A stretch of DNA of 64,000 bases, taken from contig JBJXGH010000191.1 in NCBI GenBank assembly GCA_046153685.1, positions 2,750 through 66,749 on the forward strand, given 5' to 3'. The notes beneath the pieces are model-generated. The model was not told the DNA's origin. It saw nothing but the letters and a program-made list of their open reading frames with translations, and made no database searches. Below, in pieces: positions 11,468 to 59,032 of the stretch. The translations under genes were made by a program, and so were the position numbers. Position 1 is the first letter of the stretch. The number at the start of each line of letters is the position of its first letter. Origin of the DNA: Alphaproteobacteria bacterium. GTDB taxonomy: Bacteria > Pseudomonadota > Alphaproteobacteria > CADEGL01.

Positions 11468-11525
11468 CGCGCCGGGGCGAGCGACCCTGGACAGAGCACG
11501 GACCGCCCTCCACGATCCGGCTGCC

Positions 11526-37649: not shown

Positions 37650-38615
37650 ATGGCGCGCTGGGAACTCTATCCCGACATCGATCCTTACGAGACGGGCGAA
37701 TTGGCCCTTGGCGGCCCGCATGTCATGTATTGGGAACAATCGGGCAATCCCAAGGGCATGCCTGTGCTGTTTCTGCATGGCGGCCCCGGCGCTGGGGCCA
37801 CAGCCGCGCACCGGCGGTTTTTCGATCCCGAACACTATCGGATCGCGATTTTCGACCAACGCGGCTCGGGCCGATCGCGCCCCTTGGGCGAACTCGCCGA
37901 CAACACCACGCACCATCTGATCGCCGATATCGAGATTTTGCGCCAACGCCTCGGTATCGAACGCTGGCTCGTCTTCGGCGGCTCCTGGGGTTCGACGCTC
38001 GCGCTTGCCTATGCCCAGGCCCATCCCGACCGGTGCCGGGGTCTGGTGCTACGCGGAATATTTCTGTGCCGCCGCCAGGAAATCGATTGGTTTCTCTACG
38101 GCCTTCGAACCGTGTTCCCCGAGCCGTGGCGCAATTTCGCGGGCCATCTGCCGGTCGAGGAGCGCGCGGATCTGCTCGGCAATTACCATCGCCGCCTGAT
38201 CGACCCCGATCCGGCCATCCATCTGCCCGCCGCGCGGGCCTGGAGCACCTACGAGGGTTCGTGTTCGACCCTGATGCCAAGCCCCGAGACGGTCGCGGCC
38301 TTCGGTTCGGACCGCATGGCCTTGGGGTTGGCGCGCATCGAGGCGCATTATTTCATGAACCATATTTTCATGGCCGAAGGCGCGCTCTTGAGCGGTATCG
38401 AGCGCATCCGCCATTTGCCGGCGGTCATCGTGCAGGGCCGCTACGACATGGTCTGCCCGATCGTGACCGCCGACGACCTGGTCCGCGCCTGGCCCGAGGC
38501 GGAATACATCGTCGTCCCCGATGCCGGCCATTCGGCCATGGAGCCCGGCACGCGCGCGGCCCTGGTCGCGGCGACCGAAAAGATGAAGCACCTGGCCGCC
38601 GCCAAAGCCGCATGA
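37650..38615 (+). CDS. pip: prolyl aminopeptidase (proline iminopeptidase)
   Basis: LFLHGGPGAG...FDQRGSGRS...FGGSWGSTLALAYAQAHP. Confidence 0.9.
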   Translation: MARWELYPDIDPYETGELALGGPHVMYWEQSGNPKGMPVLFLHGGPGAGATAAHRRFFDPEHYRIAIFDQRGSGRSRPLGELADNTTHHLIADIEILRQRLGIERWLVFGGSWGSTLALAYAQAHPDRCRGLVLRGIFLCRRQEIDWFLYGLRTVFPEPWRNFAGHLPVEERADLLGNYHRRLIDPDPAIHLPAARAWSTYEGSCSTLMPSPETVAAFGSDRMALGLARIEAHYFMNHIFMAEGALLSGIERIRHLPAVIVQGRYDMVCPIVTADDLVRAWPEAEYIVVPDAGHSAMEPGTRAALVAATEKMKHLAAAKAA

Positions 38616-38661
38616 AATCGCGATTTTGGGCCTCGCCTAGCGCCTTGCGCGGGGCTGCCGG

Positions 38662-39255
38662 ATGAATATGATTGGGCGGTGCCGTCGCGCGCCGCGCCGT
38701 CCGGCAGTGTTCGTTTGGGGGTCAGCCGTGTTTGCCCGTTTTGCAGCCGCCTGTGCGGCTCTTTGCCTCGTTGCGGTCTTCGGTCCCGTGCCCGCTCGCG
38801 CGGATGACGACCCGTCCTTCGTGACCTTCCAGGCAGGCGCCCTGGATCTCCTGCAGAACCACAATAAGGCCGGCGCCTTCGCGATGGAATATCGCGACAA
38901 TTCCACGTTTTGGATATTCAAGCCGTTTTTCGGCGCGATGGGCACCACCGACGGCGCGGCGCATGGCTATGGCGGCGTATTGGTCGACATCTATCTGTGG
39001 CGGCGCATTGTGTTCACGCTGAGCTTCGCGCCCGGCCTCTATCACGATGGCAAAGGCGTACAACTCGGCTTTCCATTGGAATTCCGCTCGGCGGGCGAGC
39101 TTGCCTATCGCTTCGATGACCGCTCGCGCCTGGGCTTCATGATCAATCACATTTCGAACGCGAGCCTGGGCAAGCGCAATCCCGGCACGGAAGTGATGAT
39201 GCTCAGCTATTCGGTGCCGTTCACCTCGATGCTGGGCGGGAAAGGCTCGAAATAG
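38662..39255 (+). CDS. acyloxyacyl hydrolase (PagL-like lipid A deacylase family)
   Basis: Signal-like N-terminus and an outer-membrane beta-barrel-like pattern, with HISNASLGKRNPGTEVMMLSYSVPF near the C-terminus. Confidence 0.6.
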   Translation: MNMIGRCRRAPRRPAVFVWGSAVFARFAAACAALCLVAVFGPVPARADDDPSFVTFQAGALDLLQNHNKAGAFAMEYRDNSTFWIFKPFFGAMGTTDGAAHGYGGVLVDIYLWRRIVFTLSFAPGLYHDGKGVQLGFPLEFRSAGELAYRFDDRSRLGFMINHISNASLGKRNPGTEVMMLSYSVPFTSMLGGKGSK

Positions 39256-40120
39256 GTCGGTTGACCAACCACACCCCGATCGTCGCCAGCAGAAATCCCG
39301 TGCCCGCCCCCCAGCCGATATCCTCGCCCAGCACCAACCAACCGAGAACCGCCGTCGTTCCCGGCGTGAGGTAAAAATTGGCCGAGACCTGGCCAGCTTT
39401 CCCGCGTTTGAGCATGTACAGCAACAGCGCCATGCCGCCGAGCGAGATGGCGAAGGTCAAATAGAGCAGCGTCGCGACAGTCTCCACGCTCCACTCGGCG
39501 TGAACATCCTCCAAGGCGAACGCCGCCGCGCCCGCGACGACCGCGGCGGCGCCCAATTGCACCGTGTTCGCGGGCACGAGCGCGCCCGCGCGGCAATGGC
39601 GCGCGTAATACAGCGTGCCCGCAACGAACGCGCCGACGCCCGCGATCGCCACGGCCATGGCCTCGAAGCGTTCCCAATCGTCCGCCCTCACCCCGACCAC
39701 GAGCGCCACGCCCGCGACGCCGAACGCCATGCCGCACCATTGGCGCGCACGAAAGCGCTCGCCAAGAAAATGCCCCGATAGCAGGGCGACCGCGATCGGA
39801 TGCAGCGAGCCGATGAGCGCGATGGTCGCGGCGCTGATGCGCGCCAGCGCGAGATAGGAGCAGGCAAGATAGATCCCGTTGATGAGCACGCCCGCGAGCA
39901 CGAAATGATGCCATCGCCCGGCAAGCGCGGACCAGTCCTGGCGCACGAGAAGCGCAAGCGCGCCCAAGACGGATACCGCCAAGACAAAGCGCAGGAACAG
40001 AAAATAGAGCGGCGAAATATCCGGCAGCCCCATGCGCACGGCGACGAAGGCCGAACTCCAGAGCAGCACGAACAGGGCGGGTATGGCACGCGCGAGCGCT
40101 GCCTCGCTCATCGCGCGCAC
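39221..40120 (-). CDS. EamA/DMT family transporter
   Basis: 299 aa, polytopic. ALFVLLWSSAFVAVRMGL N-terminus typical of EamA repeats. Lies 48 nt downstream of EctC-like copy A. Confidence 0.75.
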   Translation of the reverse strand: MRAMSEAALARAIPALFVLLWSSAFVAVRMGLPDISPLYFLFLRFVLAVSVLGALALLVRQDWSALAGRWHHFVLAGVLINGIYLACSYLALARISAATIALIGSLHPIAVALLSGHFLGERFRARQWCGMAFGVAGVALVVGVRADDWERFEAMAVAIAGVGAFVAGTLYYARHCRAGALVPANTVQLGAAAVVAGAAAFALEDVHAEWSVETVATLLYLTFAISLGGMALLLYMLKRGKAGQVSANFYLTPGTTAVLGWLVLGEDIGWGAGTGFLLATIGVWLVNRPISSLSRPASR

Positions 40121-40168
40121 GCGAATGCATCGCCCAACGTGCGTGCGAACGCATTGGGCGGCGCGGTG

Positions 40169-40549
40169 CTAAAGAATGGGATAGGAGCCGTCCTTGTCGT
40201 GTATCTCGGAGCCGACAAGCGCCGGAGTGAAGACACAGATAATCCGCATCCGGGTCTTGGCGGCAAGCTTGTGCCGGTCATGCTGGTCCAGGCAGTACAT
40301 CGTGCCCGGCCGCGCGGCGTAGGTCTTGCCGGTGCTCAAATCCTCGAGCGTGCCTTCGCCTTCGAGAATGTAATTGCCTTCGATATGGTTCTTGTAGTGG
40401 AGAACGGCCTCGCCTCCCGCCTCGATCGTGGTGTCGGTCATGGTGAAGCCCACGCCGTCCGCGCGCGTGAGAAAGCGCAGGCTCGAGCCGGTCGCCACCT
40501 TGCGGTGATTCGGCCCGCCCTCCAAATCTTCCTTGTAGCGAACGATCAT
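40169..40549 (-). CDS. EctC-like cupin (ectoine-synthase family), copy A
   Basis: 126 aa: MIVRYKEDL...HYKNHIEGNYILEGEGTLED...YCLDQHDRH...GSEIHDKDGSYPIL. AAGGGAGA SD upstream. Confidence 0.8.
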   Translation of the reverse strand: MIVRYKEDLEGGPNHRKVATGSSLRFLTRADGVGFTMTDTTIEAGGEAVLHYKNHIEGNYILEGEGTLEDLSTGKTYAARPGTMYCLDQHDRHKLAAKTRMRIICVFTPALVGSEIHDKDGSYPIL

Positions 40550-40571
40550 CGAAATCTCCCTTGTTGCCGAT

Positions 40572-40952
40572 TCACAGAATGGGATAGGACCCTGTTTCGT
40601 CGTGGGCTTCGGTGCCCACCAGAGCGGGCACGAAGACGACGATGATGCGGATGCGCGTTCTGCAGGTGACGCGATGCCGGTCGGCTTTGTCGAGGGTGAA
40701 CATCATGCCCGGACGAATCTCGTGGCTGCGGCCCGAATCGAGATCCTCGAGCGTGCCCGTGCCCTCGACGATGTAATTGGTTTCGATGTGGTTCTTGTAT
40801 TGCAATGTCGCGACGCGGCCCGGCTCCATGGTGAAATCGACCATGGAAAACCCGACGCCGTCGCCACGCACCAAAAGGCGGTAGCTTTCGCCCGCGGCGA
40901 GCGCGCGATGATGCGGCCCGCCCTTCAAATCCTCGCGATGCTTCACGATCAT
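40572..40952 (-). CDS. EctC-like cupin (ectoine-synthase family), copy B
   Basis: Start at Met44 of the track ORF, giving 126 aa: MIVKHREDL...QYKNHIETNYIVEGTGTLED...FTLDKADRH...GTEAHDETGSYPIL. 77 of 126 positions are identical to copy A (hand count, gap-free). Confidence 0.8.
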   Translation of the reverse strand: MIVKHREDLKGGPHHRALAAGESYRLLVRGDGVGFSMVDFTMEPGRVATLQYKNHIETNYIVEGTGTLEDLDSGRSHEIRPGMMFTLDKADRHRVTCRTRIRIIVVFVPALVGTEAHDETGSYPIL

Positions 40953-41044
40953 GGCATCGTCCACCCCGGCTTCCGACTCCATTTCGGAGCCGACGAACTT
41001 TAGGCACGGCGGCGCGCGAAAGCGAATCACGCGGTCTTGCTCGG

Positions 41045-41965
41045 TCACCCGGCAGCGGGCACCCTCTTGTGTCCGCTCCAAATCTGCATGGCGAAAATTG
41101 CCCCGACGATGAGCGCGCCGCCCACGGCCTGGAGCGGCGTCAGCACCTCACCCAGCAAAAAATAAGACAGGACGACGACGAACACCGGCTCGGCCGAAAG
41201 CGCCAGGGCTATGCGCGTCGGCCCCGCCATGGACAAGGCGCTGAACATGGAAAATAGCGCGGTGCCGTTGAGCGCGGCGATGGCAAACAAGCAGATCATG
41301 CCCCGATCGGTTGCCGGCAGGACGAAGCTGTCGGTCGCAAGAAAGGCGATCATGCCCACGAGCGCCCCGCAGGGCTGCATGTGCAGCATGATGCGCAAGC
41401 TGTCGATATTGCCGAGCGTTCGATTGGTGGCGACGATCAGGATGGAGAGGCCCACGGCGCTCAAGCCCGCAAGCGCAACCCCACGCGCGTCCAAGTCCAA
41501 CAGCGAGACCTGGAGCACGAGAGACAGCCCCGCGAACGCCGCCGCGATCGAAGCGAGCTTCACCGGCGTCAACGGCTCGCCCACCACGATACGCATCAAG
41601 AGCGCAACCAGAAGCGGATAGACATATTCGATGAGGACGGCGAGGCTAACGGGCACGAACAGGAACGACGCGTAAATCGAAAGCGTCTGGAAGCACATGA
41701 GGACGCCAAGCGCGCAAGCGATCGCGCGCTGGCGCGGCCTCAGCCGGATGGGCTTGGACGCAAGCAGCGCATAGGTCAGCAGAACCACGAACACGGCCGA
41801 CAGCCGCACGCCGATGATCGCCTGAGGCGAGCCGCCCGCGGCATAGACCTCGCGCGCCAAGATCACGCTCATGCCAAAGCACAGCGCGCTGCCGATGCCC
41901 ACGGCGAGGCCAAGCCAGGCGCGCCGGCCGATGGCCGTGGCGTCGTGCGATTGCGGACCGGTCAT
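41045..41965 (-). CDS. EamA/DMT family transporter
   Basis: Polytopic. ATG at Met10 (41965) is preferred over the TTG at 41992. Confidence 0.75.
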   Translation of the reverse strand: MTGPQSHDATAIGRRAWLGLAVGIGSALCFGMSVILAREVYAAGGSPQAIIGVRLSAVFVVLLTYALLASKPIRLRPRQRAIACALGVLMCFQTLSIYASFLFVPVSLAVLIEYVYPLLVALLMRIVVGEPLTPVKLASIAAAFAGLSLVLQVSLLDLDARGVALAGLSAVGLSILIVATNRTLGNIDSLRIMLHMQPCGALVGMIAFLATDSFVLPATDRGMICLFAIAALNGTALFSMFSALSMAGPTRIALALSAEPVFVVVLSYFLLGEVLTPLQAVGGALIVGAIFAMQIWSGHKRVPAAG

Positions 41966-42165
41966 TCTGCCCCCCTGACCGAGCTTATCCAAGGCGCGCC
42001 TGCGAACCTAGCGCGGCGGACACGGCGCGGCCTTTGGTTGATCGCCGCAGTTGCATAGTGTCCGCTGGCATGGCAGTGGCGCGCGAACGGGGTTCCGTTG
42101 GAGCCGGGCGAGGCCTAAAGTGTCCAACGGCCATGGAAGCTCGCAGCAATCAAGGGAGCGCCGCG

Positions 42166-43122
42166 ATGGCGAAGTTGATGTTTGAAACCGTGACCATCGT
42201 TGGAACCGGGGTAATCGGCCGGAGCTGGATCCGGGTCTTTGCGCGCGCCGGATGCAAGGTTCGTGTCTTCGACCAAGACCCGGCGCAAGCCAAGCGCGCG
42301 GTCGATTGGCTGGCCGCCGATACGGCGCTCGATGTCAGGGAAGGCTTCATCGACGAGCAAACCCGCGCCGACACGCTCGCCTCAGTGACCCTGCACGCCG
42401 ATCTGGCCGAGGCATTCCGTGGCGCGGGCTTTGCGCAGGAAAGCGGACCTGAGAATCTTGCGGCCAAGCGCGCGATCTATGCCGCCATGGACAAGGCGGC
42501 GGCGCCCGATGTCATCCTATCGAGCTCGACTTCGGCGCTCGACATCGACGCCATCGCCGGCGATCTGCCGGGTGCCGCGCGCTGCATCATGGCGCATCCG
42601 TGCAATCCGCCCCATATCGTGCCGGTGGTCGAGATTCTGGGCACGAAAAAAACCCCCGCCTCGGTGCGCCAGGCAACTTGCGATTTCATGACCGAACTTG
42701 GGCAGAAGCCCGTTGTGCTCAATTTTTTCGTCACCGGATTTCTGCTCAACCGCATCCAGGCCGCCGTGGTGCGCGAGGCCTTTCTGCTGGTCGAAAGCGG
42801 CGTGGCCAATGCCGAAGACATCGATTCGACGATCAAGGACGGCCTTGCCTTGCGTTGGGCGTTCATCGGCTGCTTCGGCGCCAATCATTTGAATTCCGAC
42901 GGAGGCATCAAGACGTATTTCGAGCGCTATGCACAGACCTATCGCGATATGATCGCGGACTTGAAAAACGATGCCCCGGCCTTCGCACCCGAAACCATGG
43001 CGCAGATTGAACGCGAATGCGGCTTCAAGCCCGGCGCCGAAAACATCCGCGCCTTCGGCCAATGGCGCGACCGGATGATCCTCCGCCTCAAGGCGATCAA
43101 GGCCAAACACACGCGCCCATAA
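42166..43122 (+). CDS. 3-hydroxyacyl-CoA dehydrogenase family protein (L-carnitine-dehydrogenase-like)
   Basis: Start at Met45 after AAGGGAG. VTIVGTGVIGRSW Rossmann motif, SSSTSAL, HPCNPPHIVPVVEI and a C-terminal dimerisation-type domain. Confidence 0.75.
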   Translation: MAKLMFETVTIVGTGVIGRSWIRVFARAGCKVRVFDQDPAQAKRAVDWLAADTALDVREGFIDEQTRADTLASVTLHADLAEAFRGAGFAQESGPENLAAKRAIYAAMDKAAAPDVILSSSTSALDIDAIAGDLPGAARCIMAHPCNPPHIVPVVEILGTKKTPASVRQATCDFMTELGQKPVVLNFFVTGFLLNRIQAAVVREAFLLVESGVANAEDIDSTIKDGLALRWAFIGCFGANHLNSDGGIKTYFERYAQTYRDMIADLKNDAPAFAPETMAQIERECGFKPGAENIRAFGQWRDRMILRLKAIKAKHTRP

Positions 43123-43149
43123 GAGCGATTTTCCAATTCGGAGAGTTTC

Positions 43150-43938
43150 ATGAGCGACATCGTCAAACTAAGCCGGTCGAACGGCGTATTCGAAATCGTC
43201 TTCGACCGGCCTCCGGTAAACGCGATCGATGCGCCGACCAGTCGGCGCCTGGGTCAGGTGTTCGACGAATACCGGCGCGACGACGATCTCAAATGCGCGA
43301 TCGTTACGGCGCCGGGCGACCGCATCTTCTCGGCCGGCTGGGACTTGAAGGCAGCCGCGCTGCAAGGCGAGAACGAGGACGCGGAATGGGGCGTGGGTGG
43401 TTTTGCCGGCATTACGCAAATGTTCGACTTGTACAAGCCGGTGATCGCGGCGGTTAACGGCCGCGCGATCGGCGGTGGCTTCGAAATCGCGCTCGGCTGC
43501 GACATCATCATCGCGGCCGAGACCGCGGATTTTTCTCTCCCCGAGGCCGCGCGCGGCGTGACGGCGGATGCGGGCGGGCTTCAGGTCCTGCCCCGGCGCG
43601 TACCCATGAACATCGCGATGGAATTGCTGCTGACCGGGCGGCGCATGTCAGCCGCGGAAGCGCACAAATGGGGTCTGGTCAATCAGGTCGTGCCTCTGGC
43701 GAAGCTTATGGACACCGCACGGGAATTGGCGCGCCAGATCGCCGAGGGCGCGCCGCTGTCCATCCAGGCAACCAAAGAGGTCATTCGCGGCATCGAGGGC
43801 ATGCCGCTGCGCGAGACCTACCGAATGATCAAGGAACGCAGATTTCCGGTTCACGCCAAGATGCTGACCTCGGAGGACCACTTGGAAGGCCCGCGCGCCT
43901 TCGCCGAGAAGCGCAAGCCGGCCTGGAAGGGCCGCTGA
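43150..43938 (+). CDS. enoyl-CoA hydratase/isomerase (crotonase; CaiD-like)
   Basis: 262 aa with NRPPVNAID-like motif, FSAGWDLKAA, GGGFEIALGCD and EGPRAFAEKR. Confidence 0.85.
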   Translation: MSDIVKLSRSNGVFEIVFDRPPVNAIDAPTSRRLGQVFDEYRRDDDLKCAIVTAPGDRIFSAGWDLKAAALQGENEDAEWGVGGFAGITQMFDLYKPVIAAVNGRAIGGGFEIALGCDIIIAAETADFSLPEAARGVTADAGGLQVLPRRVPMNIAMELLLTGRRMSAAEAHKWGLVNQVVPLAKLMDTARELARQIAEGAPLSIQATKEVIRGIEGMPLRETYRMIKERRFPVHAKMLTSEDHLEGPRAFAEKRKPAWKGR

Positions 43939-43946
43939 GCGATTCG

Positions 43947-45530
43947 ATGGAATCCGCGCGGCTACTTGTCGATCTGCTCGGCAAGGACCGGGCGAGCGTC
44001 ACCGAGCTGTTGGAGGCACGGTGCCGCACGACGCCCGATGCGCCGTTCCTGCGCCACCAATCGGGGCGCTGGACCTATGGCGGGGCTTGGGAGGAGATGC
44101 GCCGCTTCGCGGGGTTTTTGTCCGCTCGTGCCGAGCCGCGTCCGCGCGTGGCGACGTATCTGTCGAAGCGCCCCGAGGCGCTTTGGGCGTGGTTCGGCAC
44201 CACGCTCGCGGGCGGTATTCACGTGGCGCTCAATCGCGCGCACAAGGGCGAACTGCTCGCCGACATGGCCCGGCGCACGAAGGCGAAATTGCTGGTGACC
44301 GAGGAATCGGCCTGGGCAACCCTGCCCGATCCCGCGCGCTGCGGCTTTTCCCGCGTTTTGTTCGTCGATGCCGCGCCCCGGAGCGCGCGCGTCCAAGGAG
44401 TCGAATTCCTCGATTGGGACGCGGTCCGCCGCGCGCCGCAAGGCGAGATCGTGCCGTCCACGCCCAACGACACGGCGTGCCTGCTGTATACCTCGGGCAC
44501 GACGGGGCGCTCGAAGGCGGTGCTGGTGCCGCACAACATGTACGCACGCGGCGCCGCCAATGTCGCGGCGGCCTTCGAATTCGGCCCCGAGGACGTGATC
44601 CACGATTGGGCGCCGCTATCGCATATCGGCGGGCAGATGCACATGACGCTCGCGGCCGTTTCTTCGGGAGCGTGTCTTGCGCAGTACGATACCTTTTCGC
44701 GCACGCGCTTTTGGGATCAGATCGCGGAAAGCCGCGCAACCGCGTTCTTCGGCTTCTCGAACATCCTGTCGCTGCTGATGATGGCGCCGGAAAGTCCGGC
44801 CGATCGCCGGCACACACTCCGCGTCGGTCTTGTCGCGCACATGCAGGAGAAGGCGCAACTTGCCTTCGAGTCGCGGTTCGGCGTGAAGCTTTGGGACACC
44901 TACGGCATGAGCGAGGGCGAGCCCATGACCTTGCCCGCGCAAGGCGTGCCGCCGGGTTGTTCGGGCGCGCCCGGACCCGATTTCGAACTCGCCATCGCGG
45001 ACGAGAATGACAATCTTTTGCCCACGGGCGAGGTCGGGCGGATCGTCATGCGCCCAAGGGCCGCCGATGTGATGATGAAGGCCTACGAGGACGACGATGC
45101 GGCGACGCTCGATGCCTGGCGCAATCTGTGGTTCCACACCCAGGATTTGGGCCGCCTCGATGAGCATGGATTTCTTTGGTATGTCGATCGCCTGAAACAT
45201 TCGATTCGCCGCGCGGGCGAGAACATCTCGTCCGCCGAGGTCGAGCGCGCGCTGAAGGCGCACCCCGATGTGCACGACTGCGCGGTCGTGGGCGTGCCCG
45301 ATCCCTTGACGGTGGAAGCGGTGAAGGCGGTGGTCGTGCCGCGCGCGGGCGCAATTCTCGATGCGCCGTCCCTCCACGCCTATGCGGTACGCGAAATGGC
45401 GCGCTTCATGGTGCCGCGCTATATCGAGATTCGCGCGGTTCTGCCCTATACCGATGTCGGCAAGGTCAAGCGCGACGAGTTGCATGCGGCCGGCCCCTTC
45501 ATCTGGGACGCCGAGGAAGCCGGGCGATGA
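43947..45530 (+). CDS. AMP-dependent CoA ligase (CaiC-like)
   Basis: Start at Met94 of the track ORF. LLYTSGTTGRSKAV, YGMSEG and WFHTQDLGRLDEHGFLWYVDRLK. Confidence 0.85.
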   Translation: MESARLLVDLLGKDRASVTELLEARCRTTPDAPFLRHQSGRWTYGGAWEEMRRFAGFLSARAEPRPRVATYLSKRPEALWAWFGTTLAGGIHVALNRAHKGELLADMARRTKAKLLVTEESAWATLPDPARCGFSRVLFVDAAPRSARVQGVEFLDWDAVRRAPQGEIVPSTPNDTACLLYTSGTTGRSKAVLVPHNMYARGAANVAAAFEFGPEDVIHDWAPLSHIGGQMHMTLAAVSSGACLAQYDTFSRTRFWDQIAESRATAFFGFSNILSLLMMAPESPADRRHTLRVGLVAHMQEKAQLAFESRFGVKLWDTYGMSEGEPMTLPAQGVPPGCSGAPGPDFELAIADENDNLLPTGEVGRIVMRPRAADVMMKAYEDDDAATLDAWRNLWFHTQDLGRLDEHGFLWYVDRLKHSIRRAGENISSAEVERALKAHPDVHDCAVVGVPDPLTVEAVKAVVVPRAGAILDAPSLHAYAVREMARFMVPRYIEIRAVLPYTDVGKVKRDELHAAGPFIWDAEEAGR

Positions 45531-47296
45531 CCGTCTATAAGGCGCCGCTGGCCGATCTCGCCTTCGTGCTGCACGACTTGCTCGGCGCCGAAGACGTGCT
45601 CGGCGCGCTGCCCGGCTGGCGGGACATCGATCGGCCGACGATCGAACGCATTCTCGGCGCGGCGGCGCGCCTCGCCGAGGATGAATTGTTTCCGCTCAAT
45701 CAATCAGGCGACCGCGAGGGCTGCGTTTTCGAGAACGGCGAAGTCCGCACGCCAACGGGCTTTCGGGCCGCGTTCGCGCGCTTCGCCGCCGGCGGCTGGT
45801 GTGGTTTGACCGCCGAGGAAAAATGGGGCGGTCAAGCCCTGCCCCGAATCATCGATACCGCCGTGCTCGAAATCTGGGGCTCGGCCAATCTGTCGTTCAG
45901 CGATTACGCCCTCGTCATTCCCGCGGCGGTCGAGACCATCGACCGCCACGCCGAGGAAAGCCTCAAGGAACGTTACCTTCCCGCCCTGGTCGCGGGAAAA
46001 TGGGCGGCCACGATGTGCATGAGCGAGCCCCATTGCGGCACCGATCTCGGCCTGCTCAAGACACGCGCCGAGCCGCAAGACGATGGCGGGTATCGCCTGA
46101 CGGGCACCAAATGCTTCATCTCGGGTGGCGAGCACGATCTGGCGTCGAATATCGTGCACCTGGTGCTCGCGCGCCTACCCGACGCGCCTGCGGGCGTGCG
46201 CGGCATCTCCTTGTTCCTGGCGCCGAAATACCTAGCTGACGCGAAGGGCGGCCCGGGCGCGCGCAACCGAGTGCGCGCCATCGGCATCGAGCACAAAATG
46301 GGCTATGCCGCCTCCGCCACCTGCACGATGGCCTTCGAAGGCGCGCAAGCCTGGCTGGTCGGCCCGCCTCATCGGGGATTGAACTGCCTGTTCACCATGG
46401 TGAATGCCGCGCGCCTCGCGGTCGGCATGCAGGGCTTGTCCTTGGCCGAGACCGCCTATCAGTCGGCCGCGCACTACGCGCGCGAACGCTTGCAAAGCCG
46501 CGCGCCGGCGGGTGCGCGCTTTCCCGACCGGCCCGCCGATCCTCTGATCGTGCAACCCGATGTGCGGCGCATGTTGCTGAATGCGCGCGCCTTCATCGAG
46601 GCGGCGCGGGCGCTGGCGCTGTGGACGGCGCTCCAGCTCGACATCGCGGCGCGCCACCAAGACGCGGCCACGCGCGAGCGCGCGTCCGACCTCGCCGCCT
46701 TTCTCACGCCCGCGATCAAGGCCGGGTTCAGCGATTGGGGCTTTGCCGCGTGCGACGACGCCATGCAGATTTGGGGCGGCCACGGCTATATTCGCGCGAA
46801 CGGCATGGAACAACTGGTGCGCGACGTACGCCTTTCGCGCATCCAGGAGGGAGCCAACGCGATTCAAGCGCTCGATCTGTTCGGCCGCAAGATGGCGCAG
46901 AACGGCGGCCGCGCCTTCCGGAGCCTGGTTGAGGAAATCGAGAAGTTTCTCGACGGCCCGGGCCGCGCGCCGGACATGGCGGAATTTTCCGTGCCGCTCG
47001 CCGCAGCGCTCGCGCGCACGGTCGAACTCGTCGCATGGCTCGGCAAGCAAGGCGACCGGAACGAACTCGCGGCCTCCGGCGTCGATGCCATGCGCGTGTT
47101 CGTCCTGATGCTGTTCGCCTGGACCTGGGCGCGCATCGCCCATGCCTGCCAGGGCCGCACCGATGCCATGGCCGAGGGCAAGCGCGCCGTCGCTCGCCAT
47201 TTCTTCGCGCGCCTTTTGCCCCTTCAGCCCGGCCACGCAGCCATCGCCATGGCAGGAGCCGCAAGTCTCATGGCGCTTGCCGACGACCAGGTCTAG
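45527..47296 (+). CDS. long-form acyl-CoA dehydrogenase (about 590 aa)
   Basis: ATG 45527 overlaps the upstream stop (ATGA). MCMSEPHCGTDLG, FISGGEHD and QIWGGHGYIRANGMEQLVRDVR. Confidence 0.85.
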   Translation: MTVYKAPLADLAFVLHDLLGAEDVLGALPGWRDIDRPTIERILGAAARLAEDELFPLNQSGDREGCVFENGEVRTPTGFRAAFARFAAGGWCGLTAEEKWGGQALPRIIDTAVLEIWGSANLSFSDYALVIPAAVETIDRHAEESLKERYLPALVAGKWAATMCMSEPHCGTDLGLLKTRAEPQDDGGYRLTGTKCFISGGEHDLASNIVHLVLARLPDAPAGVRGISLFLAPKYLADAKGGPGARNRVRAIGIEHKMGYAASATCTMAFEGAQAWLVGPPHRGLNCLFTMVNAARLAVGMQGLSLAETAYQSAAHYARERLQSRAPAGARFPDRPADPLIVQPDVRRMLLNARAFIEAARALALWTALQLDIAARHQDAATRERASDLAAFLTPAIKAGFSDWGFAACDDAMQIWGGHGYIRANGMEQLVRDVRLSRIQEGANAIQALDLFGRKMAQNGGRAFRSLVEEIEKFLDGPGRAPDMAEFSVPLAAALARTVELVAWLGKQGDRNELAASGVDAMRVFVLMLFAWTWARIAHACQGRTDAMAEGKRAVARHFFARLLPLQPGHAAIAMAGAASLMALADDQV

Positions 47297-48176: not shown

Positions 48177-49721
48177 TCAGGCCGAAACCGCGTAGGGCGA
48201 GCGCCTGGGATCGGCCCCACCCATGAGCAAGCCGTCATCGTCGCGCACGATGGCGCAAACCCCACCCATGAGCCGTGACCACGGTCCCACGTCTCGAAGC
48301 GTAAATCCCGCTTCGGCAAGCGGGCGCAGCGCCGCGGCTTCGATGCGACTCTCGTGCATGACATCAAGCCCCTCGTCGTGGCGAATGCGCGGTGCCTCGA
48401 CCGCCTCCTGAACGTCGAGACCGTCATCGACCAGATGCACGACGACCTGGGCAAGGCTTTGGGGCTGGCCGTGATCGCCCGGCGTGGCGATGGCCGCGCG
48501 CACGCGGCCGCCTTGAAAAATCAAGGCCGGGCAAAGCGTATGCGGCGTGCGCTTGCCCGGAACCAGGCGCGCGGGGCCGGATTCGGCGAGCGTGCACATC
48601 GAGAGCCGGTTCTGCATCACGATGCCGGTCGCGGGCGAGGCCACGCCGGAGCCGAAATGATCGAACAGGCTTTGCACCCAGCTGACCGCGTTGCCCCAGC
48701 GATCGACGACGACCAGGGTCGAGGTGTCGCCGCCAACCGGGCGTGTAGCGCTCGCGGCTTCCGCCCCGCGCGCGAGTTCGTCGAGCGAAGCGGGCGAAAG
48801 CGCATCGGCCGGCAGAGGCGCGTGCGAAGGATCGCCCAGATGCCTGTCGCGCAGCGTGAAGGCGGCGAGTTTTGCGCGCATGAAGCGCACAAGCGGCGGC
48901 CCGTCGGGCAAGCGTGCGAGCGCGCCCAAAGTCGCGAGCAGGGCTATTCCCTGGGTATTGGGCGGCGAGGCATAAACCTCGACGCCGCGATAGGGCACGC
49001 AAAGGGGCGCCTGAATAAGCGTTTCGTGGCGCGACAGATCGTCGAGGGCTAGCAATCCGCCCGAAGCCTGCACATCGGCGGCAAGCGCGCGTCCGACCTC
49101 GCCGCCATAGAGCGCGCACGGCCCCTTGGCGACAAGAGTATCGAGCGTCACCGCCAAGGCGCTCAGGTCCAGGCATTCGCCGAGCTTGCGTCCGCCCGGA
49201 ATGCCGTAGAGCGCGACGAGTGCCCGGTTGCCGGCGACGCGTGCGGCATAAGCCTCGCCGTTGAGATAGTCGCGCAAAATGCGGTCAACGGGCAGCCCCG
49301 CCTTTGCGAGTTCGCGCGCGGGCGCGAGCGCGCGCGCGAACTCGATGGTACCGTAACGCTTGAGGCAATCGGCCCAGGCATGAACCGCGCCCGGGGTGGA
49401 AATCGACAACGGCCCGTGACCGGGAATCGCCGAAAGCCCCGCCTTGCGATAATGCGCAAGCTCGGCGGCGAGGGGCGCGGCGCCCGAGCCGTTGACCGCG
49501 ACCGTTTTGCGCGCGCGCGCGTCATGCCACAGGACGAAGCAATCGCCCCCGAGTCCATTCATGAACGGAATCGCCACCGCCAGGGTCGCGGCGGCGGCGA
49601 CGGCGGCATCCATCGCATTGCCGCCTTGACGCAGAACGGCCGCGCCGGCCTCGGAAGCCAAGTGATGGCCGGCGACGACCATGCCGCCCCGGGCCATCAC
49701 GATGGGGCGATGAACGAACAT
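48177..49721 (-). CDS. gamma-glutamyltransferase family protein (no obvious signal peptide)
   Basis: GGNAMDAAVA...MNGLGGDCF...GGDTSTLVVVDRWGNAVSWVQS (autoprocessing Thr context). Confidence 0.8.
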   Translation of the reverse strand: MFVHRPIVMARGGMVVAGHHLASEAGAAVLRQGGNAMDAAVAAAATLAVAIPFMNGLGGDCFVLWHDARARKTVAVNGSGAAPLAAELAHYRKAGLSAIPGHGPLSISTPGAVHAWADCLKRYGTIEFARALAPARELAKAGLPVDRILRDYLNGEAYAARVAGNRALVALYGIPGGRKLGECLDLSALAVTLDTLVAKGPCALYGGEVGRALAADVQASGGLLALDDLSRHETLIQAPLCVPYRGVEVYASPPNTQGIALLATLGALARLPDGPPLVRFMRAKLAAFTLRDRHLGDPSHAPLPADALSPASLDELARGAEAASATRPVGGDTSTLVVVDRWGNAVSWVQSLFDHFGSGVASPATGIVMQNRLSMCTLAESGPARLVPGKRTPHTLCPALIFQGGRVRAAIATPGDHGQPQSLAQVVVHLVDDGLDVQEAVEAPRIRHDEGLDVMHESRIEAAALRPLAEAGFTLRDVGPWSRLMGGVCAIVRDDDGLLMGGADPRRSPYAVSA

Positions 49722-49741
49722 CGATGCCTCGCGCCCGGGCG

Positions 49742-50275
49742 CTAGCGGCGACTCGCCCGCGCCTTGGACCGGGGCTTCTTCGCCTTGACCGCGGGCGGGC
49801 TCTTGCGGATCGACAGGGTGACGCCAGCCTTGTCGGCGACATCGAAATAGGTGAAGCCGCTGCCATTGTCGCGGCGGCCGCGCATATAGGGCTTAAGGCC
49901 CATGCGCACGGCCTGTTTCTCGCCCGCATCGACGTCATCGACCACGAAGCCGATATGAAACACGCCCTCGCCGCGCGTCTCGAGGAACTTACGCTGCGGC
50001 GTTCGGCCCGGCGGCGGGTAGCCGAGCTGGAATTGCACGGGCCCGAGCTGGCAATATTTGAACTTGAGCTTCTTGAAGCCGGGCACATCGGGCATCTTGA
50101 GCGAGGTGAACTGTCCGAGCGGCGGATAGTCCAGCCACGGCCCGATGCCGATCGAATTGTAGAATTTTTCCGCCCGCGCCATGTCTTTCACGACGATGCA
50201 GAGGTGATGCAAGGTGTGGAACGGCGTCTTCGGCGCGGCGCCCTTGGTCGCGGATTTTGCCTTGCTACGTGCCAC
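49742..50275 (-). CDS. VOC (glyoxalase/bleomycin-resistance/dioxygenase) family protein with a basic C-terminal tail
   Basis: LHHLCIVVKDMARAEKFY...GVFHIGFVVDDVD. GTG start at 50275 after GGGGAGA is preferred; the track ORF runs to 50392. Confidence 0.65.
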   Translation of the reverse strand: MARSKAKSATKGAAPKTPFHTLHHLCIVVKDMARAEKFYNSIGIGPWLDYPPLGQFTSLKMPDVPGFKKLKFKYCQLGPVQFQLGYPPPGRTPQRKFLETRGEGVFHIGFVVDDVDAGEKQAVRMGLKPYMRGRRDNGSGFTYFDVADKAGVTLSIRKSPPAVKAKKPRSKARASRR

Positions 50276-50410
50276 GTCATTCTCCCCTATGAATCTGGTC
50301 CCGTTTATACGCTTCCCGACGCCTTGCCCGGTCCCCCTTGGAAAATCGCAGTTCACCAGTCCCGGCCTCGCCGGCCGGGGCCGGATAGACAACCTAGGGA
50401 AAGCTCGCAG

Positions 50411-51394
50411 CTAGCGCCAATTGGCCGGAAGCCTAGTCCCGACATTGTTCTTCACTGCATAACGATAGACGAGCGCGGCGAGTCCGAGAATTCCGACGGC
50501 ATGGCCGCTATGGCAAATAATCGCGCGCTCGCTCGCATTGCGGCGCGGCGCCGCTCGGCCCGCCGCCAAGTCCTTCAAATCCCCCTCAAATGGCCCTGCG
50601 ATCTTGAAGCGGCCGATTTCGATTTCGTGCTTGGCTTGATCTCGATCGTCGGTGAGAACGCGCTCGAACCCCTCCAGGCCCGGATGCCACGACCGGCCGA
50701 GATCGACCGCGCTCACGAAAGCACCCGGCTTCACCCAGGACGGATCGAGAATCGGTACGGACGTGCTGGCAACGGGAATGGAGGTTACCACCACGTCGGC
50801 TTCAACGGCGGCGCGCGGATGATCGGAGATTTGGACCGTCCAGCCCTGGGCCCGCGCCTCGGCAGAAAATATTTCGGCCCCGGCGCGGCTGCGATTATAG
50901 GCGATGACGGTCGTGAGCCTAGGTAGCACGGCCTTGAGCGCGGGCAGGTGCACGCGGCCCTGCGCGCCCGTCGCGACGAGGCCGAGGGTCGTCGAATCGG
51001 GTCGCGCGTAGCGCCGCGCGACCATTCCCGACACGGCCGCCGGAATCCAGGTCGACATCCAGAAGCTGTCGAGAAGCGCCACGGGGCGCGCGGTCTTGTA
51101 GTCGGCGAGAATTTCCATGCCGCTCAGATGGTGCTGGCCCGGCGGTGCCAGTTCCGCCTGAACGCCCATGGAGTTGTGGCAAAGATTGAGCCCCAGGCGC
51201 GGCGAATAGGCATTGAGGGAATAGAAGAAGCTGCGCGCCGGCGTGAGCGAGACGACTTTGGGGTGTCCAACCAGCGTGCCCTCGTCCCAGTCGCGAAAGC
51301 AGCGCTCGACCTCGTCGATCATCTCGAGATAGGGCACGCCCGCCCCGGCCACGTCCGAGCGCGTGAGGTACAGGATTCGGTCGCTATCGGTCAT
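50411..51394 (-). CDS. ornithine cyclodeaminase/mu-crystallin family protein
   Basis: 327 aa. LGLVATGAQGRVH Rossmann motif and overall OCD layout. Confidence 0.7.
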   Translation of the reverse strand: MTDSDRILYLTRSDVAGAGVPYLEMIDEVERCFRDWDEGTLVGHPKVVSLTPARSFFYSLNAYSPRLGLNLCHNSMGVQAELAPPGQHHLSGMEILADYKTARPVALLDSFWMSTWIPAAVSGMVARRYARPDSTTLGLVATGAQGRVHLPALKAVLPRLTTVIAYNRSRAGAEIFSAEARAQGWTVQISDHPRAAVEADVVVTSIPVASTSVPILDPSWVKPGAFVSAVDLGRSWHPGLEGFERVLTDDRDQAKHEIEIGRFKIAGPFEGDLKDLAAGRAAPRRNASERAIICHSGHAVGILGLAALVYRYAVKNNVGTRLPANWR

Positions 51395-51428
51395 GCGCGC
51401 CCCATTCGCTCGCGTCCGCGCCGCGGCG

Positions 51429-51794
51429 TCAAATGCCGGGCAAGGTTTTCATCTTGTGAAACACGCAGCCCTCGGTCTTGGTATTGGCCTCGAAATTCCG
51501 GCAATTTTCGGGTCGGCGTTCGTATATGCCGCAGCGCCCGTCCCGGCCCAGTGCCGGGCAGTTCAGGGTCCAGGAATTGTAGAGCTTGCCCTTGATGCGA
51601 TAGGTCTGCTCGATCTCGACCGGCTGGAACGGCATGTCGTGCTTCACCATGTAGGCATGCACCGCCCAGACCCCTTCCTCGGCAGGGTACAGCAACGTGC
51701 CGTTGGCCGTCGTCACGTCCGTCTTTTCGTCGCTCGTCAGGACCAGGCCGCGGCAGCAATGGCCGGGATCGGGGCAGATATTGCAAAGACTCAT
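51429..51794 (-). CDS. YkgJ-family cysteine-cluster (putative Zn/Fe-chelating) protein
   Basis: Start at Met67: MSLCNICPDPGHCC...CPALGRDGRCGIYERRPENCRNF. Confidence 0.65.
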   Translation of the reverse strand: MSLCNICPDPGHCCRGLVLTSDEKTDVTTANGTLLYPAEEGVWAVHAYMVKHDMPFQPVEIEQTYRIKGKLYNSWTLNCPALGRDGRCGIYERRPENCRNFEANTKTEGCVFHKMKTLPGI

Positions 51795-51920
51795 GGGGGC
51801 TGGACTACCATTGTTGTGAAGATACGCCGTGCATCGACGCGGAGTGATGTATAAGGCCAATCCGCCGCGTGCGAAACCCGGGCGCCGACCGACCCGGGCA
51901 AACATCAACGAGGAAGGCAA

Positions 51921-52496
51921 ATGCTCAATACCCTGATCGCCCTGATCGCCACCATGCCCTTCGCCCTGGTCATCACCAGCGTGGCCGCGCAACCCAATCC
52001 GCGCGTCAAGCTCACGACCAATTTAGGCGCCATCGTCATCGAGCTGTATCCCGACAAGGCGCCGATCACGGTCAAGAATTTCCTCGATTACGTGCGCAGC
52101 CAACACTACGAAGGCACGATCTTTCACCGCGTCATGGCGGGATTCATGATCCAGGGAGGCGGCTTCGACGCCTCGCTCGCGGAAAAGTCCGAGCGCAAAT
52201 CCATCAAGAACGAGGCGGATAACGGCCTGAAGAACACCTCGGGCACCGTCGCCATGGCGCGCCTGCCCGATCCCCATTCGGCCTCGGCGCAGTTTTTCAT
52301 CAACACGGTCGACAATCCCGGTCTCGATCACAAGGGCAAGACCGACCGCGATTGGGGCTATGCCGTTTTCGGTATCGTGGTCGAAGGCATGGACGTGGTG
52401 AAACGCATCGAGCGCTCGCCGACCGGCCGCATGCGCGGCATGTCGGACGTGCCGACCAAGGCCATCACCATCGAAAAGGCCGAGATCATCCAATAG
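51921..52496 (+). CDS. periplasmic cyclophilin-type peptidyl-prolyl isomerase
   Basis: Signal peptide, then FHRVMAGFMIQGGGF, GTVAMAR and SASAQFFIN. Confidence 0.9.
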   Translation: MLNTLIALIATMPFALVITSVAAQPNPRVKLTTNLGAIVIELYPDKAPITVKNFLDYVRSQHYEGTIFHRVMAGFMIQGGGFDASLAEKSERKSIKNEADNGLKNTSGTVAMARLPDPHSASAQFFINTVDNPGLDHKGKTDRDWGYAVFGIVVEGMDVVKRIERSPTGRMRGMSDVPTKAITIEKAEIIQ

Positions 52497-52613
52497 CGGG
52501 GATCATCCGGAACCAGAGGGGCGTATTCCGCCAGGCGCAATGGCGTCCGGCGGGATGAATCGGCGCGGATGAATCCGGAACGACGGACTGGGGCCGATGG
52601 CTCGTCGGGCGGC

Positions 52614-53576
52614 CTATTTGCCGCGATTTTTCGCCTTCCAATCGGCCATCACGCATAGGATCTCGAACATCAGATTCGCCGCCGTAACACAGGTGATGCC
52701 CGTGGGATCGAGCGCGGGCGCGACCTCGCTGATATCGGCGCCGATGATTTCGTTGCCGCGCAGCGACCGGATGATGACCTGCGCATCCCGCGGACTGACG
52801 CCGCCGATTTCGGGCACGCCCGTGCCGGGCGCATGCACCGGATCGAGGCCGTCGATGTCGAGAGAGACGTAGATCGGCCCGTCGCCGATGATCTTGCGCA
52901 CGGTCTCGACGACCTTGGCGCGGCCCATGTCCTCGTATTCGTCCATGGTGATGCAGCGATAGCCGACATCGAGGCCGAATTTTATGTCGTCGGCGCTGAA
53001 CCGGCTGCCGCGCAGGCCGATCTGCACCACGCGCTTGGGATCGACCAGGCCCTCCTCGTACACCCGACGCATGAAGGTCGCGTGATTGACCTTGGTGCCG
53101 CACAGCTCGTCGAGGGTGTCGGCATGGGCGTCGAAATGCACGATGCCAACCGGACGCTTCTTGGCGATGGCGCGCAGAATCGGCACCGGAATGGTGTGGT
53201 CGCCGCCGATGGCGATGGGCAGGATGTTCAGCGCGTGCAGACGCTCGAAATATTCCTGAATCATGGCGATGGAGCGGTCGAGGCTCATCGGATTGACCGG
53301 CGAGTCGCCGAGATCCGCGACATTGCAGATGTCGAACGGCGCGATCCCGCTCGAAGGGTGGATGCGCCGGATGATGCGCGAGGCCTCGCGCACGCCGGCC
53401 GGGCCCTGGCGCGAGCCAGAGCGAAAATTCACGCCCAAATCGAACGGCACGCCCACGAGGCCGATATCCACCTCCGCCGAAGCATCGTGCCGTCGGGCGC
53501 GCATGAAGGTGGCGACATCCGCAAACCGCGGCACCACTGTCGCATCGACTTGGTTGAAACGAGGATCTGGGGCCAT
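52614..53576 (-). CDS. agmatinase/ureohydrolase family protein
   Basis: GGDHTI, FDAHADT and SLDIDGLDP manganese-ligand motifs. Substrate (agmatine versus guanidino acids) is not decidable. Confidence 0.85.
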   Translation of the reverse strand: MAPDPRFNQVDATVVPRFADVATFMRARRHDASAEVDIGLVGVPFDLGVNFRSGSRQGPAGVREASRIIRRIHPSSGIAPFDICNVADLGDSPVNPMSLDRSIAMIQEYFERLHALNILPIAIGGDHTIPVPILRAIAKKRPVGIVHFDAHADTLDELCGTKVNHATFMRRVYEEGLVDPKRVVQIGLRGSRFSADDIKFGLDVGYRCITMDEYEDMGRAKVVETVRKIIGDGPIYVSLDIDGLDPVHAPGTGVPEIGGVSPRDAQVIIRSLRGNEIIGADISEVAPALDPTGITCVTAANLMFEILCVMADWKAKNRGK

Positions 53577-56475: not shown

Positions 56476-56961
56476 TCATCGGGCGCGAAAGAGGCGTCGC
56501 GCCAAAAGATGATCCAGCGAGAGCGCGCCCGCGCCACGCGTCAGCACATAGGCCAAAACCGAGGCCCAAAGCAGATGTTCGGCCCAATTCTCGGGATAGA
56601 CAAAGAACTGGATGACGAAGGTCATGCCGAGCAGAGCGGCCGCGCCAAAACGCGCGCCAAGGCCGAGAACGATCAGCACGGGACAGGCGAGCTCGTTCGC
56701 CGCCGCGAGCGTCGCCGCAAGCTCCACGGGCAGAAGCGGCACGGCGTATTCGTTCTCGAACAAGGCGAGCGTCGCGTCCCAGCTCGCGATCTTGGTCAAG
56801 CCCGATTTGAAGAACACCGCGCCCACGCCGACGCGCATTGCGAATTCGACGACGCCTAGCGGAAAGCGCGCGAGCAGGCGCCGCCCGGCATCGACGAGTT
56901 CGAGCGCGCGGCTGCCGGTGTTCGCAAGCGACACGGGCGTTTTCATGGCATTCGTGGACAT
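56476..56961 (-). CDS. DoxX family membrane protein (bufferin-operon DoxX)
   Basis: 161 aa with RVGVGAVFFKSGLTKI...CPVLIVLGLGARFGAAALLGMT. Lies 5 nt after the DUF2063 gene. Confidence 0.8.
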   Translation of the reverse strand: MSTNAMKTPVSLANTGSRALELVDAGRRLLARFPLGVVEFAMRVGVGAVFFKSGLTKIASWDATLALFENEYAVPLLPVELAATLAAANELACPVLIVLGLGARFGAAALLGMTFVIQFFVYPENWAEHLLWASVLAYVLTRGAGALSLDHLLARRLFRAR

Positions 56962-56966
56962 GGCCG

Positions 56967-58737: not shown

Positions 58738-58765
58738 GGCCCGCATCCGTCCGTCGGTTCGAAGT

Positions 58766-59032
58766 TCAAGTCTTGACTGCGCCACCATTGATCTTGGCGC
58801 AGGTGCCGGCGGGGACGAAAATCCACGCGTCGGCCTGATTGTCCTTCTTGGACGTACCCGCGCAAGACGAGGTCGCGGTCTGGCAGTCGTTCATGCCGGC
58901 TTTGGCGATACCGCCGCATTTCTCGAACTTGAAGCTCGGCTTTTCGGCGGGGCCGGCCTGGGCCGCGCCGAGAGCCACGAGTGAAAGCGCTGCCGCGAAG
59001 GCGGAGCCGACGAAAGCGGAAGAGGTCTTCAT
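58766..59032 (-). CDS. bufA: DUF2282 / BufA1-type bufferin precursor peptide
   Basis: 88 aa. Sec signal MKTSSAFVGSAFAAALSLVALGAAQA, then EKCGGIAKAGMNDCQTATSSCAGTSKKDNQADAWIFVPAGTCAKINGG with Cys39/50/57/78. AAGGGAG SD 7 nt upstream. Confidence 0.85.
   Translation of the reverse strand: MKTSSAFVGSAFAAALSLVALGAAQAGPAEKPSFKFEKCGGIAKAGMNDCQTATSSCAGTSKKDNQADAWIFVPAGTCAKINGGAVKT

Follow-up and report, generated by a model that had tools for sequence, protein, structure and literature searches.

The window analyzed here, a 64-kb stretch of DNA from the genome of a freshwater alphaproteobacterium, contains a cluster of four minus-strand genes that code for two small proteins related to the ectoine synthase EctC, here referred to as copy A and copy B, and for two permeases of the EamA family of drug/metabolite transporters (DMT) that flank them. 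The open reading frame (ORF) list gives the order EamA, EctC-like A, EctC-like B, EamA with gaps of 92, 22, and 48 nt, and the cluster is located at least 22 kb away from both window ends. Its parts are as follows:

41045..41965, minus strand: upstream EamA/DMT permease, 306 amino acids from ATG (the ORF reaches back to a TTG codon, position 41992); first in the presumed operon
40953..41044, minus strand: spacer of 92 nt between the upstream EamA gene and copy A; orthologous loci have here the gene for a 417-amino-acid pyridoxal phosphate (PLP) enzyme that resembles sphingosine-1-phosphate lyase (SPL)
40572..40952, minus strand: EctC-like copy A, 126 amino acids from ATG; diverged paralogue
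40169..40549, minus strand: EctC-like copy B, 126 amino acids; placed in the tree with the EctC of L027-L030, where this locus has a single copy
39221..40120, minus strand: downstream EamA/DMT permease, 299 amino acids; last gene of the presumed operon

The 3' end of the downstream EamA gene overlaps a convergent PagL-like gene by 35 nt. A BLASTP alignment of copies A and B without gaps gave 77 identical residues out of 126 (61%; E 2e-60), and the motifs MIV(K/R), (H/Q)YKNHIE..NYI.EG.GTLED, and GSYPIL were confirmed in both. The description of the four genes in the initial annotation, including the three gap lengths and an identity counted by hand, thus agrees with the ORF list and with BLASTP.

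We find that these four genes form a conserved, co-oriented unit, a form of the orphan (non-ectABC) EctC-type systems that is restricted to certain lineages. An EamA–EctC-like–EamA core is syntenic across a small group of Alphaproteobacteria metagenome-assembled genomes (MAGs) with a GC content of ~65%, and some lineages add copy A and the PLP enzyme to this core. Both copies are true members of the EctC family, as had been proposed when they were annotated as EctC-like cupins. The Pfam model PF06339 (Ectoine_synth; cutoff, 27 bits) matches copy B with 151.8 bits and copy A with 130.3 bits, and against the NCBIfam model NF009806 (ectoine synthase; cutoff, 128 bits), copy B passes comfortably with 151.9 bits and copy A narrowly with 131.7 bits. 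The fold of copy B was assigned by its sequence match to PDB entry 5ONN (E 1.1e-34; copy A, E 2.4e-26) and that of copy A from an AlphaFold2 model (pLDDT 93.8, pTM 0.86). The top eight Foldseek matches of this model were all EctC structures (5BXX, 5BY5, and 5ONM-O) with template modeling (TM) scores of 0.83 to 0.96, and its root mean square deviation to 5BXX was 1.1 to 1.7 Å. Identity to the EctC protein from P. lautus is 41 to 46% for the pair, with copy B at the upper value.

Within the 64 kb, the pair is of the orphan or solitary EctC type with respect to ectAB. A Pfam scan of ~57 candidate ORFs from all parts of the window detected no Aminotran_3 (EctB), GNAT (EctA), PhyH (EctD), or AA_kinase (Ask) domain, which bears out the earlier statement that ectA, ectB, ectD, and ask_ect are missing from this stretch. 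Likewise, no domains of ect partner proteins were present within ±10 kb of the orthologous clusters at L001 or L007, and no canonical ectABC cluster was among the loci retrieved; the Rhodobacteraceae, W21/T38, and other matches were all orphans, and the nearest homologue clades compared are likewise located outside ect clusters.

The active-site residues set the two copies apart from each other and from ectoine synthases. They were read by alignment to P. lautus EctC, whose numbering is used here, with the A/B number in brackets where it is different:

Trp-21: Gly in B, Gly in A
Arg-25: Arg in B, Arg in A
Asn-38: Thr in B, Val in A
Thr-40: Thr in B, Phe in A
Trp-51: His in B, Gln in A
Tyr-52: Tyr in B, Tyr in A
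Glu-57: Glu in B, Glu in A
Tyr-84 (85): Tyr in B, Phe in A
His-92 (93): His in B, His in A
Cys-104 (105): Cys in B, Val in A
Phe-106 (107): Phe in B, Phe in A

Copy B has the complete Fe triad Glu57/Tyr85/His93 and in addition R25, T40, Y52, S23, and F106. Copy A has the Glu and His ligands, while the Tyr ligand is replaced by Phe in all seven A-type sequences. Neither protein contains a single Trp residue over its whole length, and Trp-21 is missing not only from A and B but also from the single-copy orthologues and from a sister clade in Nanopelagicales. For P. lautus EctC, a W21A variant was reported to retain 9.7% and a Y84A variant 15% of activity, and Ser-23 and Phe-106 make contacts with the product (PMC6344544). 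In the same study, all of the 437 bona fide EctCs were reported to have Trp-21, and the 145 orphans to keep it, sometimes two positions off; the iron-, substrate-, and product-binding residues of orphan EctCs are "mostly conserved" (PMC6344544). In both A and B, Trp-21 is replaced. This loss, together with the loss of the Tyr ligand and of Thr-40 in copy A, argues against ordinary ectoine synthase activity.

Across all EctC-like sequences compared, R25, Y52, E57, H92, and F106 are invariant, and positions 21, 38, and 40 differ clade by clade. This combination of common machinery with clade-variable pocket positions is the pattern that would be expected for one catalytic apparatus acting on different substrates. 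Furthermore, nine changes (L18, E22, F40, M42, V62, F85, V95, I101, and V105) are fixed in copy A, that is, they are the same in all seven A sequences and unlike every B or single-copy sequence, and about four of the nine are at or adjacent to catalytic-core residues named in reference PMC6344544. Their concentration at the active site points to remodeling of the pocket rather than decay. As read from the alignment, the substrate pocket of the EctC-like pair is thus altered. Since Trp-21 packs on C3/C4 of N-γ-acetyl-diaminobutyrate, its replacement by Gly would enlarge the pocket, and the physiological substrate is probably a compound other than the ectoine precursor.

Homologues were collected by a protein search with copy B and by scans of GTDB species genomes and JGI metagenomes; the window cupins themselves had no exact-sequence match in the contig index, and their context was therefore taken from these homologues. 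In the loci with ~65% GC, genes were called with a filter on third-codon-position GC (GC3) because of spurious antisense ORFs. The homologous loci belong to a small set of Alphaproteobacteria MAGs. In the closest relative, labeled "Rhizobium sp. Q54," from which the PLP gene has been lost as in the window, copy A shares 97% protein identity, and a synonymous divergence (dS) of ~0.16 to 0.23 indicates that this is a different strain or species. Three arrangements were seen:

EamA–EctC–EamA, with a single B-like copy: L027-L030
EamA–A–B–EamA: the window, L009/L010, and two contigs of ERZ1305449
EamA–PLP enzyme–A–B–EamA: L001 (=L011), L007, L012, L096, and L097 (three GTDB species and two metagenome contigs)

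A-type genes are rare and were present in 3 of 185,579 GTDB species representatives and at two loci among the JGI metagenome records. The unit is kept at saturating synonymous divergence (dS, 0.5 to 1.4), and the arrangement eamA-ectC-ectC-eamA, for which a survey of gene neighborhoods had been suggested, is conserved in related genomes and hence not a chance adjacency. The loci have a common downstream neighborhood, in which the opposite strand carries PagL-like and proline-iminopeptidase-like genes and SNase, M48 peptidase, and GYD genes come next. The upstream flank varies by lineage, with both EamA genes still adjoining the cupins.

In five of the six lineages in which the A+B pair was seen, the PLP gene is located between the upstream EamA gene and copy A. 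The initial annotation regarded the window genes as a self-contained module, a description that does not hold in view of this additional enzyme and of its loss from the window lineage. The soluble enzyme (417 amino acids; PF00282) has SPLs as its best solved relatives (3MAD, E 2e-92), and its best NCBIfam model is MfnA, which it matches below threshold (241 bits versus a cutoff of 299 bits). No homologue of the PLP gene was detected anywhere in the window, and blastn-short and tblastn searches with the PLP genes of L001, L007, and L012 detected no remnant in the 92-nt spacer. L010, which is also without the PLP gene, has a spacer with 93% identity to it. In trees of the cupins and of flanking proteins, the window and L010 are sister to the PLP-bearing loci L007 and L096, with the PLP-bearing loci L001, L012, and L097 outside. 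Such nesting among PLP-bearing loci indicates that the gene was lost secondarily in the window lineage, and the window unit is a reduced form of the five-gene unit.

Both cupin genes are under purifying selection. Ratios of nonsynonymous to synonymous substitution (dN/dS, Nei-Gojobori) were 0.05 to 0.26 for copy A and 0.04 to 0.17 for copy B. The comparison between the two PLP-less genomes gave 0.089 and 0.038, respectively, indicating that selection maintained both copies also after the PLP gene was lost. Copy A evolves about 1.5 to 2 times faster than copy B, and the A-type sequences form a clade with 100% bootstrap support on a long branch. Within the tree, the A and B subtrees are congruent, which points to co-inheritance and fits a single old duplication or acquisition after which A was inherited together with B. 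The possibility that copy A is a pseudogene was rejected, as its dN/dS values and an intact ORF in seven loci argue against it.

The two permeases both conform to the DMT/EamA definition, with two EamA (DUF6) repeats in ~300 amino acids. The upstream protein matches PF00892 with two domains and 90.5 bits, and its NCBIfam matches, 2A78 (55 bits) and YddG (36 bits), are below threshold; orthologues with 54 to 92% identity occupy the same position in L001, L007, L010, L012, L027-L030, and L096. The downstream protein matches PF00892 with two domains and 109.3 bits and has orthologues with 56 to 94% identity in all related loci. Neither flanking permease reaches an NCBIfam equivalog cutoff. A recent duplication of the two EamA genes was considered and rejected, as their similarity is at the family level only. 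The co-oriented EamA pair around the EctC-like genes, at operon-like spacing, is as initially described. However, nothing in the analysis points specifically to the accompanying proposal of an import/cyclize/export route or to a direction of either transporter. A scan for sigma-70-like promoters gave nothing above chance, and terminator-like sites were at chance level (4 found versus 3.5±2.1 expected). No Rfam match with an E of ≤1 was found in region 38500-42600, and the seven orthologous loci gave only tRNAs. The case for a functional linkage comes from the common strand, the short spacing, and the fact that both EamA genes stay by the cupins despite the variable upstream flank. A third EamA-family permease gene at 11406-12374 (plus strand) of the window is unrelated to the cluster.

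Several other features of the window were noticed. Divergent from the cluster, a set of 3-hydroxyacyl-CoA dehydrogenase (3HCDH), enoyl-CoA hydratase, acyl-CoA synthetase, and acyl-CoA dehydrogenase genes occupies 42034-47296 (plus strand; L007:2498-7649). This set is located beside the cluster in the window, L010, L007, and L096 and not in L001 or L012, and for this reason it is probably a neighbor and not a part of the module. In the spacer that separates the upstream EamA gene from the divergently transcribed 3HCDH gene, the sequence CAC(T/C)TTAGG at 42085-42100 is kept in the window, L010, L007, and L096, and the remainder of this spacer is poorly conserved. The sequence is located ~65 to 80 nt upstream of the probable dehydrogenase start (ATG 42166) and may be a promoter element or operator. 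Farther away, genes for gamma-glutamyltranspeptidase, a glyoxalase-family protein, ornithine cyclodeaminase/mu-crystallin, and arginase are present within ~5 kb at 48177-53576 (minus strand) and could constitute an arginine/ornithine-to-proline route. DoxX, DUF2063, and MbnB/TglH/ChrH-family (PF05114, 335 bits) genes are located in a row at 56476-58788 (minus strand), and a DUF692/DUF2063 pair of this kind is associated with the modification of ribosomally synthesized and posttranslationally modified peptides (RiPPs) or methanobactin-like peptides.

The contexts of other EctC-like genes differ from that of the window. The Nanopelagicales/acI sister clade (Gly21/His38, Trp-less, solitary), found in about 17 freshwater GTDB species, consistently adjoins glutamine synthetase and S9 peptidase genes (L004:8378-12318, L016:6538-10381, and L020:6535-10381). 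At L090:6496-9418, there is a 4-nt overlap between an EctC-like gene with Ala21/Ser38/Ile40 and the stop of a metallopeptidase gene of the MlrC-like type (DUF1485+MlrC_C), and a short-chain dehydrogenase/reductase (SDR) gene comes after the EctC-like gene; this suggests a different, peptide-linked role for this orphan clade. An orphan clade with Trp21/Thr38/Glu51 adjoins a gene for a 478-amino-acid protein with no assignment and ABC exporter genes, and another Trp21 orphan is located in an unrelated context. Finally, Dehalococcoidia have arrays of four to five tandem genes for ~277-amino-acid double-EctC proteins (L076:6667-10834, L081:7738-12197, L085:7054-10834, and L080:9569-10402), in which Glu57/Tyr84/His92 are kept in both halves but the pocket residues are distinct, of an N type and a C type. 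The literature searched contained no EctC-like proteins that are fused or arrayed.

With some confidence, we favor a model in which copy B is an Fe-dependent cyclo-dehydratase, or a hydrolase acting in reverse, whose substrate is an amino compound that bears an amide or amine and is not N-γ-acetyl-diaminobutyrate, with copy A as a specialized partner and the DMT permeases carrying the precursor, the product, or both. The compound handled by the module would probably be a small molecule that resembles ectoine. Copy B would be the catalytic subunit, as it keeps the Glu/Tyr/His Fe(II) site together with the Tyr52/Glu57/Thr40/Arg25 apparatus. EctC uses this apparatus to activate an amide carbonyl for attack from a neighboring amine, and by the same chemistry, copy B would either close a ring with elimination of water or, in reverse, hydrolyze a ring, acting on an amide-/amine-bearing amino acid derivative. 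Copy A, with its predicted EctC fold, more hydrophobic pocket, and two of the three metal ligands, is most likely a specialized partner of copy B, and it might act either as a heterodimer mate or by catalyzing a second, related reaction that is connected with the product of the PLP enzyme. The two unrelated DMT permeases would then move precursor, product, or both. EctC is a head-to-tail dimer formed via β1 (MIVRN) and the β-strand carrying Tyr-85 (PMC4795551), and both of these dimer elements are conserved in A and B. Together with the fused Dehalococcoidia proteins, this makes a pairing of paralogous EctC domains, and by analogy of A with B, plausible. A more specific version of the model seems unlikely to us: in this version, A and B would form an obligate heterodimer with one Fe site in B and a remodeled, Tyr-less pocket in A, and in freshwater Alphaproteobacteria, the five-gene form with the SPL-like PLP enzyme would produce a cyclic amidine or ectoine-like metabolite that has not been described so far and would export it via the DMT permeases.

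A number of points weigh against the favored model. Copy B passes the NCBIfam cutoff for ectoine synthase and retains most ligand-binding residues, so that residual or real ectoine synthase activity is possible. The replacement of Tyr84 by Phe is also seen in some solitary Rhodobacteraceae EctC-like proteins and is thus no proof that copy A needs a partner or is inactive, and the idea of an A–B heterodimer comes from analogy alone. EamA genes are frequent in this genome, as the third copy in the window illustrates, and it is from conserved synteny alone that a functional coupling of the permeases to the cupins is inferred. The PLP enzyme belongs to a large family, and since no linkage to EctC or EamA genes was seen for the further members examined, it gives little chemical or substrate information. 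Moreover, nodes bearing on the loss versus the primary absence of A and the PLP gene in the single-copy loci had weak support (37 to 64%), and the tree of flanking proteins is effectively unrooted.

Three other explanations have to be considered. Both proteins might be genuine ectoine synthases used for salvage, with foreign N-γ- or N-α-acetyl-diaminobutyrate being imported by a DMT permease and cyclized to ectoine, as proposed for the solitary EctC from Pseudomonas syringae. It is in line with this idea that the P. syringae orphan complemented an H. elongata ectC mutant (PMC5924519), that both copies exceed the ectoine synthase cutoff, and that copy B retains the Fe triad along with R25, T40, Y52, S23, and F106; its 46% identity to P. 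lautus EctC lies between the 37 to 42% of orphans and the 49 to 90% of bona fide enzymes (PMC6344544). Yet Trp-21, described as required and universally conserved, is Gly in both copies, and copy A is without the Tyr ligand and without Thr-40, the residue that binds the α-amino group. With no ectAB genes in the 64 kb, with relatives that are MAGs from fresh water, a habitat in which one would not expect ectoine precursors, and with a PLP lyase/decarboxylase-like gene in related loci that has no part in ectoine chemistry, we consider salvage improbable. A catabolic module is conceivable as well, in which a compound of the cyclic amidine or lactam type enters through a DMT permease, its ring is opened by the EctC-like enzymes, and the PLP enzyme, where retained, cleaves or decarboxylates the linear product. 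Characterized members of the EamA family are mostly exporters, which speaks against uptake, and the conserved unit contains no regulator, dehydrogenase, or further catabolic genes. The window lineage has also dropped the PLP step, yet its remaining genes are under purifying selection. On the other hand, EctC shows measurable hydrolysis of ectoine and of ring-size analogues (PMC4795551), SPL-type enzymes, the best PDB matches of the PLP gene product, are degradative retro-aldol lyases, and nearby orphan clades adjoin peptidase- or amidohydrolase-type genes (the MlrC-like gene at L090 and the S9 peptidase gene at L004). Taking both sides into account, we give this catabolic scheme little weight.

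A still more doubtful view is that copy A is a noncatalytic relic or a ligand-binding cupin and that the adjacency of the transporters reflects gene order without a common function. The lack of one of the three metal ligands, the faster evolution of copy A, and the abundance of EamA genes would all agree with this, and because the whole neighborhood, including the PagL, Pip, SNase, M48, and GYD genes, is syntenic, synteny alone is no proof of function. However, copy A is intact in seven of seven loci with low dN/dS values and many invariant positions, and its fixed changes are focused on the active site. In addition, the four genes have short gaps and share one strand, opposite to that of the syntenic genes around them, and both EamA genes remain attached to the cupins even though the upstream flank varies by lineage. 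If the heterodimer/new-metabolite form of the favored model were true, this would be the first defined nonectoine function for orphan EctC proteins.

The finding overturns nothing; rather, it gives a compact and tractable entry to the question of orphan EctC function. The clade departs from the reported rule of an invariably retained Trp-21, and its co-inherited pair, with one copy lacking a metal ligand, belongs to a compact presumed operon that also includes two permeases and, in sister lineages, a PLP enzyme; it thus provides a sharper handle on orphan EctCs than most. The four-gene and five-gene forms are natural variants that offer a ready comparison for heterologous expression and metabolomics. 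Should a new product be found, a caveat would be needed for pipelines that name every PF06339/NF009806 match "ectoine synthase" and also for surveys that use ectC as a marker of ectoine producers.

About a quarter of the EctC-type proteins in complete genomes are orphans, and since 2010 the literature has referred to their function as unresolved (PMC5924519, PMC6344544). The initial annotation had said the same of solitary EctCs, and this is still so in the literature searched, which contained nothing on orphan EctC function beyond the 2016-2019 Marburg papers. It had also stated that a duplicated solitary pair with dedicated transporters is not known to have been described. Thirty-one genomes with several orphan ectC genes are already on record (PMC5924519), but the literature searched contained no tandem pair accompanied by DMT genes. 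Nor did this literature contain a clade without Trp-21, a co-inherited tandem pair with a Tyr-less member, a fixed association of EctC with two DMT permeases, or a linked SPL-like PLP enzyme.

Of the known systems, the orphan EctCs described by Czech et al. (2018, 2019), for instance, in P. syringae B728a and, as multiple copies, in Burkholderia cepacia and P. syringae B301D, are similar to the window pair in that they have no neighboring ectAB genes, are of unresolved function, and can be present in several copies per genome. The published orphans were reported to have Trp-21 and the iron ligands (PMC6344544), whereas the window clade is Trp-less and its copy A is without the Tyr ligand. With the bona fide EctCs from P. 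lautus (5ONM/5ONN/5ONO) and S. alaskensis (5BXX/5BY5), the pair shares the Pfam and NCBIfam family, the ~126-amino-acid single-domain cupin, and the residues Glu57, His92/93, Tyr52, Arg25, and Phe106, to which copy B adds the Tyr ligand and Thr40. It differs from them by the missing ectABC(D) cluster, by the changes of Trp-21 to Gly and of Asn-38 to Thr or Val, and by the flanking DMT permeases; copy A differs further by Phe at the positions of the Tyr Fe ligand and of Thr-40, and loci orthologous to the window add the SPL-like PLP enzyme. The fused double-EctC proteins from Dehalococcoidia likewise have two diverged EctC-type domains side by side, consistent with hetero-pairing of paralogues, but they are single 277-amino-acid chains, 40 to 43% identical to copy A over one domain, and located in another context. 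The polyketide cyclase RemF (PDB 3HT1), a small metal-dependent cupin that also catalyzes cyclo-condensation, follows directly behind the EctC structures among the structural matches. With 22% identity, a TM score of ~0.7, another metal site, and other substrates, it is set apart from the window proteins, which clearly belong to the EctC family and not to that of RemF.

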